A stretch of 64,000 bases of DNA from Moniliella sp. 'wahieum' (taxonomy: Eukaryota). This document shows, one piece after another, positions 28,947 to 43,386 of this stretch. Below the pieces are notes generated by a model. The model ran no database searches, was not told the DNA's origin, and worked only from the letters and a program-made list of their open reading frames with translations. The stretch spans positions 620,001-684,000 of the forward strand of contig RSEE01000011.1 of NCBI GenBank assembly GCA_003971905.1, read 5' to 3'. Position 1 is the first letter of the stretch. Each line of letters starts with the position of its first letter. Position numbers and translations under genes: made by a program.

Positions 28947-31900
28947 CTACGCCACGGCGATCTCCAACCGATTGCGGCTCACCGCCACCACGCGCGTATG
29001 CAGCCCCCCATCATCCACCACCGCTCTCTTCTCCGGCACAGCCGGGGGTCCAGCAGAGGCAGTCAGGTCACTGGCACCGTCGGCTTGCGACCCCTCCTCC
29101 TCTGCCGCAACAGGCGCCACTTCCTCTACCGCCGCCACAAAGGCATAGCTGCCCCGGGCAAGGAAAGCAAGCGACTGGCTTACCTCGGTACTTGCTCCAG
29201 CAGGCAAGGGCCACGGCAGACCCGCGCGCAGTGAGCGATCCGGCGGCGGGGAGCAGGTGACGCAAGACCGGGTCGGTGGGGTGAGTGGACGTGTCAATTT
29301 GGGGCGCACCAGGGGGAAGAGGGGCACCGTTAGGGTCCAACGCGGCTGCTGGCAGGGGGGTAAGGCGATAAAGCAGCTTGACCGGGCGCGGGATGCATTG
29401 GTGATGCGGGCGGTGATGGGGGTGAACTCCCCCCGCTTTGGCGTAGGGGAGGAAAGGACGATGCTCAATGGCAACGCGCGAAGTAGATCGATTTGTGCGT
29501 CGCTCCAGTCCTGCACTTCCCGCAGCAAAAGCGTTCCTTCGTGGGGGCCATGGGCAAAACTTTCCCCACCCCCCTGGGCCGGTGGCAAGTGCCAGAAACA
29601 CCGTAACCCCGCATAGAGCAAATGGGTGTACCAGAACTTACGCCGCATCAACCGGTCTTCCGTTGGTGTCATCCCTCCCCGGGTCACAGTGAATTGTCGC
29701 TCAGACAGAGAGGGATCGGAGCCTGTTCCACCTCCGGTAGCAGGGCCAGACGCGGGAAGGGTAACACGAGACGACACCGCTGCCCCGGGGGCACAAGGCG
29801 CTGGAACGTGACCCCCTCCGTGGTGGTGGATGCACCTCCACCGTACCGTCTTCGGTAACTGTAGCAGAAGCAGGGGCATACGCCAAGCCCACCGTCAAGT
29901 CTCGAACGGGATGCACGTTCTTTACATCCAAGCTGATCAGTGCCATGTCGTCCCCATCGGCCTCGTCTGCCGTCTGCACTAGCGCTGCTCCCATTGCCTC
30001 GTTCTCCTCCGCATCAAAGGGATTAAGAGATCCGTTGGCAGCCATAAGCCCGGTCAGATCATTCACCATCAATGGTCGCAGCGCCCAGGCGAGCGGCTGG
30101 ATCACCCGAACCACCTCGACGGGGAACGACAGGCGCAGCTGGCGCGTATAAAAGGTATCGCCATCCGCAGGGAGGTAGCCATATTCAATCGAGATGGTAG
30201 CCGCCATCACGCCTGCGCGACCAAACACGTTCACCACGACACTGCGTGCCTCATTGGACGGGATGGTGATGGCAGTGTCACTACCCTCGCGCTGAAGAAC
30301 AGGACGAGCAATGAGGCGGTATTCCAGCGCATGCGTGGCAGCCGGGGTCAAACCACCTTCGAGCGTGCTACGCGCCAAGGATGACAAGTTGTCTTCCAAT
30401 CCCAGGGAGATGTAGTTGACCTCAAGCCGGGGTGCGTGCGGAGGTACAACATTGCGTAAGTGCAGACGTACAGCACGGGTTTCACCCTCATACAAGACCA
30501 GCCTTCCGTCAGGAAGAGACATGCTCTCCAGCTCCAGCAGCGGCTGGGGCAGCACGACACGCACGCTCATGTGCGTGTCGAACCCCTCCGATGGCCGCGG
30601 GGGCACGCGGGTGAAGCGTGAGGCCAAGCCAGTAAACTTGGTCCGCAAGCGACGATCATGAAGGTCGGCTTCGGCGTTGGTCCAGGCCAGTTCGGTAGTC
30701 GCGTCGAGTGGAGTTAGTCGTACCTCCTCAGGTCCACAGCCTTGCAGGGTGACCCGTACCCCGACCAGGTAAAGGGTACCAGTCTCCCTGGGAATGCCAG
30801 TCAGACGAAGACGCAAAAACGATTTGGCGGGCACGGTAGCTGTGTGGGTGTTGGGTCAAAGCGGACACCGGTGACGAGCAAACGCAGGTCTGACAACGGC
30901 AGCGGAACATCCAATGGGTTGTACAGAACCACTGATGTGGTCACCTGATCGTCGCTTACGACCAGCATGGAGCTGGGCTTCTTACTTGCCCGTGCATCGA
31001 GTGCCCGAGAGCGTTCAGTCACCTTCTTGGTCTCGCTCGGAGTCAGCAGGTCCATGCGACATACGAGCTGGCGCGGGCCCCAGTATTGCACTACAGTCTT
31101 GCCGTTTCGCTTACCGGTTTCGTTGTCATCCGCCGAAACAAACACATCCCGCTCGTTCTGCACCAACTGGTCCAGCCCGGCAACGAGCTGCGCTTGTTCG
31201 AGCTTAGGCAAAAGGGGGGCAAAGTCGCGCAATAAGACCGAGGCAAAGACAGCCATCGCAATGGGGTCGCCTACCGTTTCGGCAATGGCAAGTGCATCTT
31301 TCACAACCAACGCCTGGACCTCGTCCCAGCCAAAGGCTTCGGCGTGCATTTCCAACAATGCATCGTTCAAACCTTCCGCTTCGCCGTCGAGGGGACGATA
31401 TCGCTCGCGGGCCCAAAGCTGGCGTGCCGCCTCGGGCCGTAAGGTACCCAGGGAAGTCAGACGGCGCACATCGCGAGTACGCGCCAACGCATGGTCGTCA
31501 GGCACGTGAACCAACATCTCATCCAGCTGGATCCCATATGTATCGCATATCTGGGCGGCCAGAACAAGAAGGGCATCGTAGTCCGCCTTGCCCCGGCGCG
31601 GTGAGTAGATCACATGCAAGCCAGGCGCCACCTCACCTAGACGAATGCGCAAGATATCCACCCCCGCATGAGCGGCAGCGTGAAGCCAATCCATCACGCT
31701 GGCCAGAAGACGGCGCAAGAGGTACGTTTCTCTTCGCACGAAACCAATCCAGCCAAACAGGCTCGCCATTGAGGAAAGCACATCAACTTGGTCCCTTGCC
31801 TTGAGCGCTGGTACAGAAAGCGTCAGCGCTTGGCTCGCAGCCGCCGCTACCTCGCCCTCGCCGCCGCACACCAGCATCGAGGGACCATTGAATGAGGCTG

Positions 31901-33871
31901 GCCTCATCTGGAGCTGGGCCGTCGCCTCGAAGGAGAAGAGGGGTACCTCCATAGAGAAGCTGGTCAAAGCACTCGCCGTTCCATCCACGGCAGCTCCAGA
32001 TTGCCAAAAGGAACCGTGAGTACTGGACACAAGCAGTGGCATGGATGAGTGGGTGGGTAAAGTCGATGGGAGAATTAGAAGAAACAGCTTTGGCTGGCGC
32101 TAGAAGTACAGACAGCGGAGAAAGGCATTTGGCATAGATGCTGATGGCCACCGTGTAGGCCTTGGCAATGCTTTCCCATGGCAAACCTTCATATGGCAAG
32201 TCGGCCGTACCATCCTTCTCCTTTTCGCGCTTGGCTTGCTCTTTGTCCTTGTCCTTGCCGACAGCGACGGTAAGCGGGGTAGCCTGGAAGTTAAGGTGAG
32301 CAAGACGCATTCAAGACAGGAAGAAAATATAGGCTACTTACCCTTTCTTCCACACCCTTGCCCAAGCGGGCCATCAGGGTGCGTGTCACAGCCCAGCCTT
32401 CGAGGGCTGAAGCAAACCAGACTGCATCGCGGCCGCCAGCTAAGGCACGTTCTTTCCCCATCCACTTCATAGCCAAGTCGTAGTGCGCCATGGCGTCCAC
32501 AAGTCGCCTGAGAGGAGATACACGTCGGCCATGACCTTGGTATGACGTCCTTCTCCCTGCGGACCAGAACTGCCGGTAGTGGTTTTACGCCAGGCCGAGC
32601 TGATGCGCTTGGGCGCAATGCTCGGGGGACGGGAAAGGTTAGTCGAGGAGCTGGAGAGAGAGATGGACCGGGCAAACTGAAGCGACTCCGGCTGTTGGCC
32701 ACCACCCATGGCCTTAATGGGGGTGCCGGACGATGGCTCAGGTTTTCCGGAAAAAGAGAAAAGGGACGAAGCGCGGTCCCACGTCCCACTGCCACCCGAA
32801 TTGCGTGAATCAGGCGCAACGCCAAACACAGATTCCCCCACTTCTTCGGGCGTCTGGGGCGGTGAGGCAGTTGGGTGCTGGGAAGTAGTAGCAGCGACGA
32901 CAGCCCACCATCGAGCGTGTCGCGTGGCGTTTCGAGCGGGACACCCTTGAGTGTGCCCACCATCTCCTCGAGCTGATCTAGCAGGGCCGAGATGACATCG
33001 GCCAATGCAGTCTTGACGTGGTGACGAACGTCCTTACCGTCGGCACGGTGGGCAGGGATGACAAGAAGTTCGTCCTGATCACGCTTGTCGTTGTCGCCAT
33101 CTTCTCCGCCGCCTTCGCTCGCCATCCCGCTCTCGGCCATGCCAGCACCCAAGAGCTGGGCATGGAGAGCCTGCAGTTTAGCTCGCTCGGCAGAGGAATT
33201 GGGGTCATAATCGCCCTTGGTGGTCTTCGTCTGGCTGCGCCAGGCACCGGTGGTAGTGGAGGCTTTCCATGGATTCTCGATGTCGCTGTTATCGTCATCA
33301 TCACCGCCATGGCCATTGGCCTCGCCCTCCCCCGATCCATCCGCGCCCTCGACGGCACCCAAGTCGCCTGCGGGGTCGGAGGGCACAGCGACGGGCTGGG
33401 CGGCATCGAAGGCGAGGACACGATGCATCAGAGCTCCGGGATGGGCACGCTTGAGCTCTTCGACGGCGCCCGCGAGCGATCCAGCGGAGTTGTCCTCGAC
33501 GGCGGCGGTGTGTTGGTCGTCGGCCAGGGGCGCCGGTGTAGCGGTGGCGAGGCCCACGACGGCGAGCACAGTGCGGGAGAGGGCAAAGGGGGCGAGGAAG
33601 GCATGGGCGGGGTCGTAGGAGGTGACAAAGCTGATGTGCACCTCGCCCTTGCGCGCCAGCGCACTGCCAGGGGCGACGCTGGCGCGTGGCGCGCACTCCG
33701 TGGCAGGTCCGCCAGGCGCAGCGTGCCGAAGCGACGCACGAGCGAGGCCCAGTGCTCAAACTGCCGGTCCGCAGCCCCGCCGCGCCCCACCGGTGTCAGC
33801 AGCACCCGCAGCTTGGCCGGCGCCGCAAACGACACATCCCCCGTCAGATCGCTGAGCGGCGGCGCGTCCAT
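28947..33871 (-). CDS. TRS120: TRAPP II complex subunit Trs120/TRAPPC9 (frameshifted)
   Basis: VSFAAPAKLRVLLTPVG, GEVHISFVTSYDPAHAFLAPF, GRHTKVMADVYLLSGDL, DAVWFASALEG, DFTHPLIHATACVQYSRFLLAIWSCRGWNG, GWIGFVRRETY, VVLYNPLDVPL and LVLYEGET. Size fits the family. Confidence 0.9.
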
Positions 33872-40229: not shown

Positions 40230-41864
40230 GAGTGTTGTGATGGATGAGCTGCGATGGCCTTTGAGGGGGGTCGCAATCGCTCTGGCCTTTTTATTTCGGA
40301 ACGATCCGGTTATCACGCACGACCCGGAGCTCCTCATCATGCCATCCAAACACATGTGCCACTGCCTCTGGACAATTTATCCATTACTGCGGACACCTTC
40401 CGCGAATGGCCAGGAGCTATCCCTCCGGGTTTAACGGCCCGCAGCTTCAAGTTCCTAACTTCTGTTACGCCCAATCCTGGCTGACCCCTTCATCCGCTTC
40501 ATTTTGCTGTGTCCGACTTTGTGCGGCGCCGTTGAAAGCAAACAATGTGCTGCTGCGTACTATACTGTTGTCTTTACCTCAGTCTGGAATAAGCGCTAAG
40601 CCCTTACATCCTGTATATACCTATCCTAAGGCGGCCTGATCGATCGACCAGCTTGACATCTGTATATAAGCAGCCCTATGTAAGGCTTGCTCGCTGTGTG
40701 TGGTTAGCTGTTGCTTACCAACACTGCCACCAACCTCTCTCCTACTCTGGTCAGCACTTTACCCACACCCTTTTACCTCTCCCTTGCCTCCTTCATTCTT
40801 TTATACGTTTACGAATTTACGGCTAACATCGGTTACACTTACACTGCAAAAGCTGGGGTTATACTTCAGGTAACGCTTGCTCCTCTTCAGATAGTTGCTA
40901 GCGCCAACCCCGCTTAATAAGGAACCAGGGGAGAATCGTCACAGGAGATCAGGACCCTCTGGTTTTAATGCTCCATCCGATGGACCTGTCGTGTCTTTTG
41001 CCGGCGAAGTTATCTTGGTTCCTGTTGGCATTGAAAGCACACCTACTACCGGTCACTCAACTATCTAGGAAACCGTATCAAAGAACGCGCACAGAGCCTG
41101 TCTACTTTTTGGAGAGCAACAGTGGTGATATGATGGAGTCACCGGGACCTGGGTTTCTATTGACGCTGAGCGCTGACAGTCCAACTTGAAACGCGACTTA
41201 ATCGCTCCCCAGGATGTAACCTGTTTGGCGTATCATTGTTGTTATTCCTGCCTGTGCAATCAGTTGCGTATCGGGGGAATCATCATTCTCGCGACGCGTT
41301 TTATACTCGCGCGCTTCCGTAAACGGGCTAAGAGCACGCGGCTGGACGAGTAGTTGAGTTGACAAATAGAAACATTGCGCGTCAAATATTCGTTTCAAAA
41401 TGGTGGATTAGGGTTGGTCGCCCTTTTTTGGTCCGGCGCAATAAAACATCTGCGCATGGGGGAGCGAGCACCACACCGATGTCTTGCTGCGGCCGTGAAG
41501 GCCAATTTGGGACAGGGGCAGTGCCTTGTTCTGAGCGCAGGCGTGCGCTCGCTTGGCCAGATGCCAGTTGTCTGCTCTCGCAAGCCCGACTTGGCGGTTT
41601 GCTGTCCACCACACCAAGCGATCTGAGGTGAGTCCCAACTTGAGTCGGCTCTGGGCCAGATGAGAGGCAATTGCGTCTTTGGCTATGTGGATCCAGGATG
41701 GGTGTGCGGCTACTCTTGTCCTGAACCCTCTACTTCGGTGGTCAAGGGTTGTCCCAGCCAAGGGCGGTGACTTGGGTTCCCTTCTCGCCACATCTTCTTG
41801 CCGCATGTTGGGATCTTGATGTACTGACGCGCTGTCCTCTCCTTTTCATTCCAGGTCTTTCGAG

Positions 41865-42331
41865 ATGCAGATCTTCGTCAACTCTGTTCGGGGCAACACC
41901 CTGACCCTGGCTGTGGCTCCTGAGGCTACCGTCGAGTCGGTCAAGGCTCTCAACTTTGCGCGTGACGGCATCCCTGCCGCCGAGCAGCGCCTGCTCTACG
42001 CTGGCAAGCAGCTCGCCGATGGCCGCACCCTTGCCGACTACGGCATCCAGAAGGACTCAACGTTGCACATGTCGCTGAGGTGTTTGATCCCAACCCTCAA
42101 GGGGCGCAGCGATCTGCTCGTCTGAAGTGTACTGACGTACTTCGCGTTATATGTCTTTAGCCTTCTCGGTGGTATCATTGAGCCCTCGCTCAAGGTGCTC
42201 GCCTCGAAGACCAACGTTGAAAAGCAGATCTGCCGCAAGTGCTACGCTCGTCTTCCTCCCCGTGCGACCAACTGCGGAAGCGCAAGTGTGGCCATTCGTC
42301 GCAGCTGCGCAAGAAGAAGGTCCTGAAGTAA
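41865..42331 (+). CDS. RPL40: Ubiquitin-like domain/60S ribosomal protein L40 (eL40) fusion; intron 42080-42160, probable 5'UTR intron ~41628-41854
   Basis: [10 protein letters not shown]...[10 protein letters not shown](S)|LLGG followed by [34 protein letters not shown](R)[17 protein letters not shown]. Confidence 0.95.
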
Positions 42332-43386
42332 ATGCGACCCGCATATCTGTCTGGTCTCTGCCTTTGTCCATTCCCTTGAGATTGGTGCAGGCCGACGTAA
42401 AAGATGGGGCCAATTCGGGGAGGGTATTCTACCCTATCTTGACGTGCTGGGCTTGGGCACTGTCAAGGACAGTCAGCGCCTGCGCTGACGTTGATCATAT
42501 TGCTCTTTCTGGCCTTGTCAAGCCTCCTTTTCATGTCCTATGCAAGCGCTCCCCTAGCGTGTCCTCATGCATGCTTATTAACCCATCGGCAAAGAGAGGC
42601 ATAGTTTTGCCAGGTATAGTTTACGGAGTATTCAAGCTGGCACTCTGTTGGTACGCACCGCGTCTGTGCCTTTTCTGATAGCCCTGCTGCCCCCTTCTTC
42701 ATTTTACCTACTGCTCACAGGATCTAAGGACATCTCGTTACTGACAGGGTGAAAGACTTTGAAACTGTAACCCACAGGTGAGAGGGCGTGATGAGACCTG
42801 AAGTCCTGATGGTGCGAGAGGGGGAGTGCAATCGCACTGGTGTGTAGCGACGCAAGGTCTCTAAGTATCATGCAGACAGCGGATACAGCGGCGAGAGGAG
42901 TATCGAGCATAAGCGGGAGCGAGATACAGGTTGTGGTGAGGCATACTACTACTATACAGGCGTTGCTTAGTAGTACTACAAGAGCAAAAGACACTGGTCT
43001 TCCGAGAAGTAAAGCTATAATTGTGTAGAAGACATTGCCAACTACGTGGCAAAAGGGGGGCGGTAGCGATCTAAGCCAGCCAGCAACCTGCCGACAGAGG
43101 AACAACAAGCGGCCAGTGGCCGCCGCGGCTGCGGAACAAGGAAAACAGAACGGAGAAAACAACGGAACTCCTACTCTATAGGCCTCAGGAGGGACTGAAG
43201 GGAGGTTGGCCAAAACACAGAGCCACCCGCGGTGGCTCAACAGAACGACTTCGCGCTGCTTTACCTGCGGCGAGTGTTCGTATAGAAGTTGATGAGGCGC
43301 GTACTAGAAGAATTTGCGGCTTAGTTATCGACTTACTCCTTTGGGTGCACCATCATCTTGCCGGGCAATTGCGACGCTTTAGTAAC

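Follow-up and report, generated by a model that had tools for sequence, protein, structure and literature searches.

A strongly diverged ubiquitin-like leader on a fungal eL40 gene

Ubiquitin is a textbook example of a near-invariant protein, and its fusion to the ribosomal protein eL40 is nearly universal. The reason for keeping this fusion is debated, the candidates being ubiquitin supply, coupling of synthesis to degradation and a chaperone role towards eL40. The fusion partner of eL40 and of eS31 is almost without exception ubiquitin; in yeast this moiety promotes the production of eL40 in cis, SUMO can stand in for it in part, and 60S function requires cleavage of the fusion (PMC8122580). 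According to Dalhuisen et al. (2023, PMC10457151), who cite Catic and Ploegh (2005) for divergent ubiquitin encoded by the eL40 fusion gene (UbL40), such a ubiquitin was previously known just from Giardia; they added two Plasmodium lineages and asked whether UbL40 divergences of this type are more widespread. The same paper mentions the proposal that the divergent ribosomal-fusion ubiquitins of Giardia act as chaperones only, and it discusses the function of the Plasmodium ones (PMC10457151). A diverged leader also occurs on a small-subunit protein: FUBI, the leader of eS30, shares 36% identity with ubiquitin. It contains a single lysine, ends in Gly-Gly and is removed by the ubiquitin-type protease USP36 before the subunit matures (PMC8354635).

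The window analysed here is a stretch of 64,000 nucleotides, and positions 41865-42331 on its forward strand hold a two-exon gene of the ubiquitin-eL40 type with its ATG at 41865. Exon 1 (41865-42079, forward strand) encodes ubiquitin-like residues 1-71 in 71 open codons, followed by the first two bases (AG) of codon 72, and was assigned to the Pfam ubiquitin family PF00240 with an E-value of 1.4e-21 and 76.5 bits. The intron (42080-42160, forward strand) lies in phase 2 in codon 72 and has a GTGTTT donor, a tactgac branch-like site and a TTTAG end with the AG at 42159-60. Exon 2 (42161-42331, forward strand) encodes Leu-Leu-Gly-Gly and then the eL40 sequence. Its first 13 bases (42161-42173) supply the last base of codon 72 (AG plus C, Ser) and codons 73-76 (L L G G) and so give an LSLLGG tail, with the expected cleavage point preceding Ile-Ile. 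The Gly-Gly directly adjoins the eL40 domain, a feature of ubiquitin-eL40 fusions. Residues 1-34 of eL40 (IIEPSL ... RATNC) follow in the leader frame at 42174-42275, forward strand, and exon 2 matched Ribosomal_L40e (PF01020) with an E-value of 2.3e-18 over profile positions 1-33 of 50 and residues 6-38 of the piece. The preliminary description had proposed an RPL40 gene carrying a strongly diverged ubiquitin-like leader, and both Pfam assignments agree with this.

Introns in ribosomal protein genes are common also in the 5'UTR. A possible one, proposed from the letters alone, may lie at 41628-41854 on the forward strand (227 bases), where a GTGAGT donor, a tactgac branch and a CAG acceptor 10 bases 5' of the ATG are found. 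The intron between the two coding exons is spanned, from exon 1 into exon 2, by a near-identical metagenome contig (X2 record 8). Many Agaricomycete ubiquitin-eL40 gene models (P0328-P0353, from Armillaria, Mycena, Phlebopus and Thelephora) read through introns, giving proteins of 110-237 residues in which spurious sequence precedes LRGG or follows SSQLRP; this places them in separate 50% clusters. Their read-through junction lies just 5' of the LRGG codons, as would be expected if they had an intron where the present gene has one. Elsewhere the window carries ordinary fungal genes, for Trs120, an AMP-binding enzyme, a ThrE-family protein and Tom20. The Trs120/TRAPPC9 gene at 28947-33752 on the reverse strand is split over four long ORFs, and its junction at about 30790-30868 has the look of a short intron whose branch site reads tctgac, so that short introns of this kind appear commonplace in the genome.

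Of the canonical 76-residue ubiquitins among the proteins retrieved, the three most frequent forms served for comparison; the spliced leader matches them at 45, 44 and 43 of 76 positions, close to the estimate of about 42 of 76 made beforehand. It aligned to ubiquitin without gaps over 76 residues, with 31 changes relative to the commonest form. The changes are unevenly spread: residues 41-76 are identical at 26 of 36 positions and residues 1-40 at 19 of 40. Position-wise comparison bore out the losses reported earlier, namely K6N, K11N, K29L and K33R with K27, K48 and K63 retained, as well as the altered 8/44/70 patch, which reads V/L/S (L8V, I44L and V70S), and the LSLLGG tail, which results from R72S and R74L. 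The leader thus differs from ubiquitin proper in all three of its characteristic features, the near-invariant sequence, the LRLRGG tail and the set of seven chain-forming lysines. A protein from a JGI metagenome (P0430, 107 aa) is an eL40 fusion with an otherwise canonical ubiquitin end, LVLRLLGG, that carries Leu at position 74 and Ala at eL40 residue 15; R74L therefore also occurs elsewhere.

An AlphaFold2 model of the leader had a pLDDT of 95.4 and the strand and helix order of ubiquitin; its input alignment held 73 sequences, mostly ubiquitins, and the model therefore leans on ubiquitin. Foldseek searches with this model placed ubiquitin chains on top, with a TM-score of 0.95, an rmsd of 0.9 Å and 59% identity. 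The leader is accordingly modelled as keeping the beta-grasp fold. Its C-terminus is still Gly-Gly, immediately followed by eL40, and most of the β3-β5 face is conserved. An identity with NEDD8 was rejected on the grounds of the fusion to eL40 and of the best 60 of 326 PDB matches to the leader, which contained no NEDD8 and were almost all ubiquitins, along with two engineered Affilin variants. FUBI was likewise rejected, the fusion partner here being eL40 and not eS30.

A different splice could in principle have produced a canonical tail. None of the 16 in-frame GT/GC..AG combinations around the intron restored LRLRGG, and none can be expected to, since the Leu-Leu-Gly-Gly codons sit within exon 2. 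An alternative splice with a canonical end was ruled out on this enumeration.

The eL40 part of the gene departs from what had been described. Both splice sites and the eL40 tail were said to be intact, with clean substitutions and no indel noise. The GT..AG intron at 42080-42160 was indeed found, but the eL40 frame is broken at 42276: exons 1 and 2 add up to 386 nt, which is not divisible by 3, and one base is missing. Between TGC (42273-75) and AAG (42278-80) there is just GG (42276-42277, forward strand) in place of the expected Arg codon, as seen in the sequence and in comparison with the contigs of relatives. The frame as written past 42275 continues for 16 residues to a stop at 42324-26. 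The proper end of eL40, the 17 residues 36-52 with their TAA stop (42278-42331, forward strand), sits one frame away and is open to the normal stop. A complete 52-residue eL40 with both Cys pairs is therefore not present in one frame of this record; the break falls after the third Cys, and the fourth Cys and the basic tail lie in another frame.

The metagenome contigs bear directly on this gap. X1 record 4 has an extra C that turns TGC-GG-AAG into Cys-Arg-Lys and brings the whole eL40 end into frame, and X1 record 7, a contig of the canonical type, has a C inserted behind 42277. Programmed frameshifting at 42276 was ruled out, the near-identical contig being simply in frame. With 3 mismatches in 198 bases, that in-frame contig leaves a record error or a very recent lesion as the source of the gap, and we infer that a record error is probably responsible. 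This is favoured by the in-frame near-identical contig, the downstream frame that is open to the stop and the intact codon bias. A frameshift in a sole eL40 gene should moreover be lethal, judging from yeast genetics. A real lesion is favoured by the presence of two deletions in one small gene: where the window has the donor GTGTTT, the X2 and X3 contigs have TA inserted behind 42080 and so the consensus GTATGT. The occurrence of ORFs as long as 520 residues in other parts of the window also makes frequent indel errors in the record less likely. Were the lesion at 42276 real, a second eL40 gene would be implied; the deletions at 42276 and at the donor could together mean decay in this strain.

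Sequence searches placed the eL40 part close to that of basidiomycetes. The 38-residue piece formed by LLGG and eL40 residues 1-34 had eL40 chains of fungal ribosomes as its best PDB matches, and against 1.84 billion representatives it gave matches of up to 92% identity, being identical to the nearest canonical sequences at 33-35 of 38 positions. The nearest named canonical eL40 sequences came from Agaricomycetes (Armillaria, Mycena, Phlebopus, Thelephora and Suillus) and from Cryptococcus amylolentus, and gave no confirmation of the Ustilaginomycotina, the group suggested beforehand. On the basis of these neighbours and of the position of the intron junction, the host was judged to be a basidiomycete and the gene to descend vertically from the ordinary ubiquitin-eL40 gene. 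Residue counts were made on the best 145 representatives with a CxxCYAR motif. Residue 13 of eL40 is Tyr in 112 of these, Phe in 30, Thr in 2 and Ser in 1, and is Thr in the window; residue 15 is Cys in 140 and Val in none, and is Val in the window. Both representatives with Thr13, for example a Mesostigma sequence, have a canonical ubiquitin end. The four residues before eL40 are LRGG in 135 of the 145 and LLGG in one. To judge by Thr13 and Val15, the eL40 part is itself somewhat unusual.

Within the 64-kb window tblastn detected no second ubiquitin or eL40. Canonical genes were present in the metagenome runs: X1 records 5 and 6 have an acceptor at the acceptor site of the window intron and continue with Leu-Arg-Gly-Gly, as in canonical ubiquitin-eL40, and X1 record 7 and X2 record 15 have the canonical KYNC[D/E]K. 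These contigs of X1 and X2 come from metagenomes and are attributable to no one genome; a second, canonical ubiquitin-eL40 copy may exist in the same genome as the present gene. Contig depth in X1 and X2 was discounted as a sign of a paralogue, as depth does not allow genes to be ranked. The match of X2 record 15 to positions 42186-42262 (KYNCEK) ends after Leu-Pro-Pro-Arg and is followed by 88 unlike bases that do not start with GT, and this contig may represent an odd gene structure, a fragment or a chimera.

Two protein searches returned 226 and 423 proteins at E <= 0.001, with 120 listed for each. Among the 120 listed matches per search only P0002, P0003 and P0004 were more than 62% identical, at 90, 87 and 87%. 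They are ORF calls on Logan contigs that end just past exon 1, and all three end in TLHMSL followed by an R that reflects read-through across the AG-GT boundary. All four sequences, that of the window and P0002-P0004, have the 71 codons of exon 1 in an uninterrupted reading frame. Within residues 1-71, 18 of the 29 positions changed relative to ubiquitin are common to the four, indicating that the divergence of the leader is older than their split and has continued at a moderate pace. Variation among the four is found at 17 of 71 positions, with pairwise identities of 58-64 of 71. The seven lysine positions are alike in all of them, with K27, K48 and K63 retained and K6, K11, K29 and K33 replaced, save for Ser at position 11 in one, and Q2/F4/T12, R42, G47-L50 and H68 are invariant. 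No annotated full-length orthologue was found, including in a search with the 101-residue ORF that admitted 128-residue proteins; when the search was restricted to longer proteins, polyubiquitins dominated the matches. In a scan of metagenome contigs the only hits were three loci of 37-38% identity that belong to other, distant ubiquitin-like genes.

Near-identical contigs occurred in three metagenome runs (X1, X2 and X3) of three studies, which between them cover a food, a surface and an activated-sludge metagenome. Each run contains a small share of the gene's words, none of them half or more, and no RNA data set was listed among the runs with such words. Their contigs were aligned to the window at 80% likeness, and uncovered stretches were not used. 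X1 record 4 covers 42139-42336 (198 bases) with 3 mismatches and a C inserted behind 42274; it spans the tail site at 42161-42173, and two of its 3 mismatches were placed elsewhere. X2 record 8 covers 41963-42182 with 5 mismatches, 3 of them placed in the intron, and has TA inserted behind 42080. The same TA insertion is present in X3 record 23 (42027-42102, 4 mismatches). X3 record 16 (41827-41974, 5 mismatches) starts at 41827 and has no more than one mismatch, unplaced, 5' of the ATG.

Eight exon differences could be placed, at 41888, 41897, 41918, 41921, 42059, 42063, 42289 and 42295, six in the leader and two in eL40. All eight are synonymous transitions; this count concerns placed differences only, and 6 more mismatches in the four contigs lack a position and could be non-synonymous. 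For random transitions on exon 1, 35% would be expected to be synonymous, and 8 of 8 would arise by chance with a probability of about 2e-4. The differences at 42289 and 42295 are synonymous in the restored eL40 frame and non-synonymous in the frame as written. The pattern of placed differences thus shows purifying selection on the leader. The earlier proposal that the eL40 leader became a distinct ubiquitin-like domain in this lineage gained support from the three orthologues, the near-identical contigs, the 18 of 29 common changes and the 8 of 8 synonymous differences.

Codon usage sets the gene apart from its surroundings. At four-fold sites 1 of 73 codons ends in A, whereas in eight further ORFs of the window 15% of 1966 do. 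The share of C among C/T-ending two-fold codons is 81% against 60% in those ORFs, and that of G among A/G-ending two-fold codons is 96% against 71%. Judged by these counts, the bias is that expected of a highly expressed gene, and it would fade in an old pseudogene. With orthologues that are 87-90% identical, synonymous differences, a codon bias of the expression type and a ubiquitin fold, the gene does not appear to be decayed.

The reading to which we incline is that of a basidiomycete fusion of the UBI1/UBA52 type whose ubiquitin moiety has become a lineage-specific, cleavable leader of the chaperone type outside the ubiquitin pool. A long-dead ubiquitin-eL40 pseudogene in neutral drift would fit the 31 of 76 changed leader residues and the broken frame of this record, but it is highly improbable in view of the 8 of 8 placed differences that are synonymous, the 71-codon exon 1 that is open in all four orthologues, the strong codon bias, the intact frame in a near-identical contig and the lack of indels relative to ubiquitin across 76 residues. 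A redundant paralogue is also unlikely, though it is to be taken seriously: a canonical ubiquitin-eL40 gene would then be present elsewhere in the genome, and this copy, having acquired a ubiquitin-like leader and a slightly changed eL40, would be truly broken in the strain of this record by the one-base deletion and a weakened splice donor, as a very recent pseudogene. Both the frame break and the donor without TA are deletions relative to the relatives, Thr13 and Val15 of eL40 are rare among the best 145 representatives, and X1 and X2 contain canonical contigs (LRGG, KYNC[D/E]K) beside the near-identical ones. The lethality to be expected of a real frameshift in a sole eL40 gene and the long intact ORFs of the window, up to 520 residues, which speak against an indel-riddled record, point in the same direction. 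Yet the codon bias of the highly expressed type is fully kept, the eL40 frame past the break is open to the normal stop and differences to relatives are synonymous in that restored frame, while the metagenome contigs are not attributable to one genome and the 64-kb window holds no second copy.

The leader might instead be a new conjugatable modifier, released with ribosome production and attached via an E1 other than that of ubiquitin. The retained Gly-Gly end, Leu71 and Leu73 would suit such a function, as would the retained K27, K48 and K63 and the invariance of Q2/F4/T12, R42, G47-L50 and H68 in the four orthologues. Residue 72 of the leader is small and uncharged, and in NEDD8 the Ala at residue 72 acts as the E1 discriminator. 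Change at 17 of 71 positions among four orthologues is, however, faster than in established modifiers, and FUBI, the nearest analogue, is described as still lacking an accepted conjugation machinery (PMC8354635), so that we consider a modifier improbable. It is correspondingly doubtful that a leader released one-for-one per new 60S, with Gly-Gly, K27/K48/K63 and the β3-β5 face kept, escapes the ubiquitin E1 through its loss of R72/R74 and has a dedicated machinery that conjugates or reads it. If true, a modifier of this kind would provide a signal of ribosome output apart from ubiquitin.

For the favoured reading, a cleavable leader of the chaperone type, a plausible course can be sketched. 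The ubiquitin moiety would have escaped both conservation and homogenisation with other ubiquitin loci and would so have become a lineage-specific ubiquitin-like domain. The leader would act in cis as a folding or expression aid for eL40, and a ubiquitin-type hydrolase would cut between Gly-Gly and Ile-Ile before eL40 joins the 60S subunit. The face read by that hydrolase (residues 41-50 and 52-68, Leu71, Leu73 and Gly-Gly) would correspond to the conserved half of the leader. In ubiquitin R72 and R74 matter for recognition by E1 and by deubiquitinating enzymes, and the loss of Arg72 would be expected to prevent charging by the ubiquitin E1. With Ser72, Leu74 and four lost lysines, the leader would no longer supply the ubiquitin pool via the ubiquitin E1, and the pool would then rest on the polyubiquitin and ubiquitin-eS31 genes.

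Leaders that have gone from the ubiquitin pool with the fusion kept separate the candidate roles of the fusion from one another. A fungal case would extend the phenomenon to organisms that may be amenable to genetics of the yeast type, and the LSLLGG leader offers direct tests: which hydrolase cuts it, whether any E1 charges it and whether the leader is sufficient for eL40 production. The gene represents a rare escape from the near-invariance of ubiquitin, in a fungal eL40 gene with a conserved leader.

Compared with canonical ubiquitin-eL40 (yeast UBI1/UBI2 and human UBA52), the architecture is the same, with Gly-Gly directly before IIEPSL, whereas the leader is identical to ubiquitin at 45 of 76 positions, ends in LSLLGG and is without K6, K11, K29 and K33. 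FUBI-eS30 (FAU of holozoans) shares the principle of a ubiquitin-like Gly-Gly leader with few lysines on a ribosomal protein; FUBI, however, sits on the small-subunit protein eS30 and is old and widely conserved, whereas the present leader belongs to eL40, shares 59% identity with ubiquitin and has been seen in a single narrow clade. The UbS27a proteins of Apicomplexa and other protists are also drifted fusion ubiquitins with a conserved ribosomal part, but their partner is eS31 and their divergence is much greater, with 24 of 76 residues shared in P. falciparum, as reported in PMC10457151. FUBI had been named as the precedent in the preliminary description; the divergent UbL40 ubiquitins of Giardia and of two Plasmodium lineages, as presented in PMC10457151, are closer. 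The present gene is of this Giardia/Plasmodium kind. A search of the literature found no published fungal case of a divergent ubiquitin-eL40; the kind has been described already in Giardia and two Plasmodium lineages, and the fungal instance is apparently new. Common to all of them are the ubiquitin-eL40 fusion, the 76 residues and the kept predicted fold, together with a leader that escaped conservation in a narrow lineage while the fusion was retained. The leader described here is more divergent than those of Giardia and Plasmodium, with 31 differences, four lost lysines, V70S and the loss of both tail arginines, and it is further distinguished by changes in the 8/44/70 patch, two unusual eL40 residues and a fungal host.
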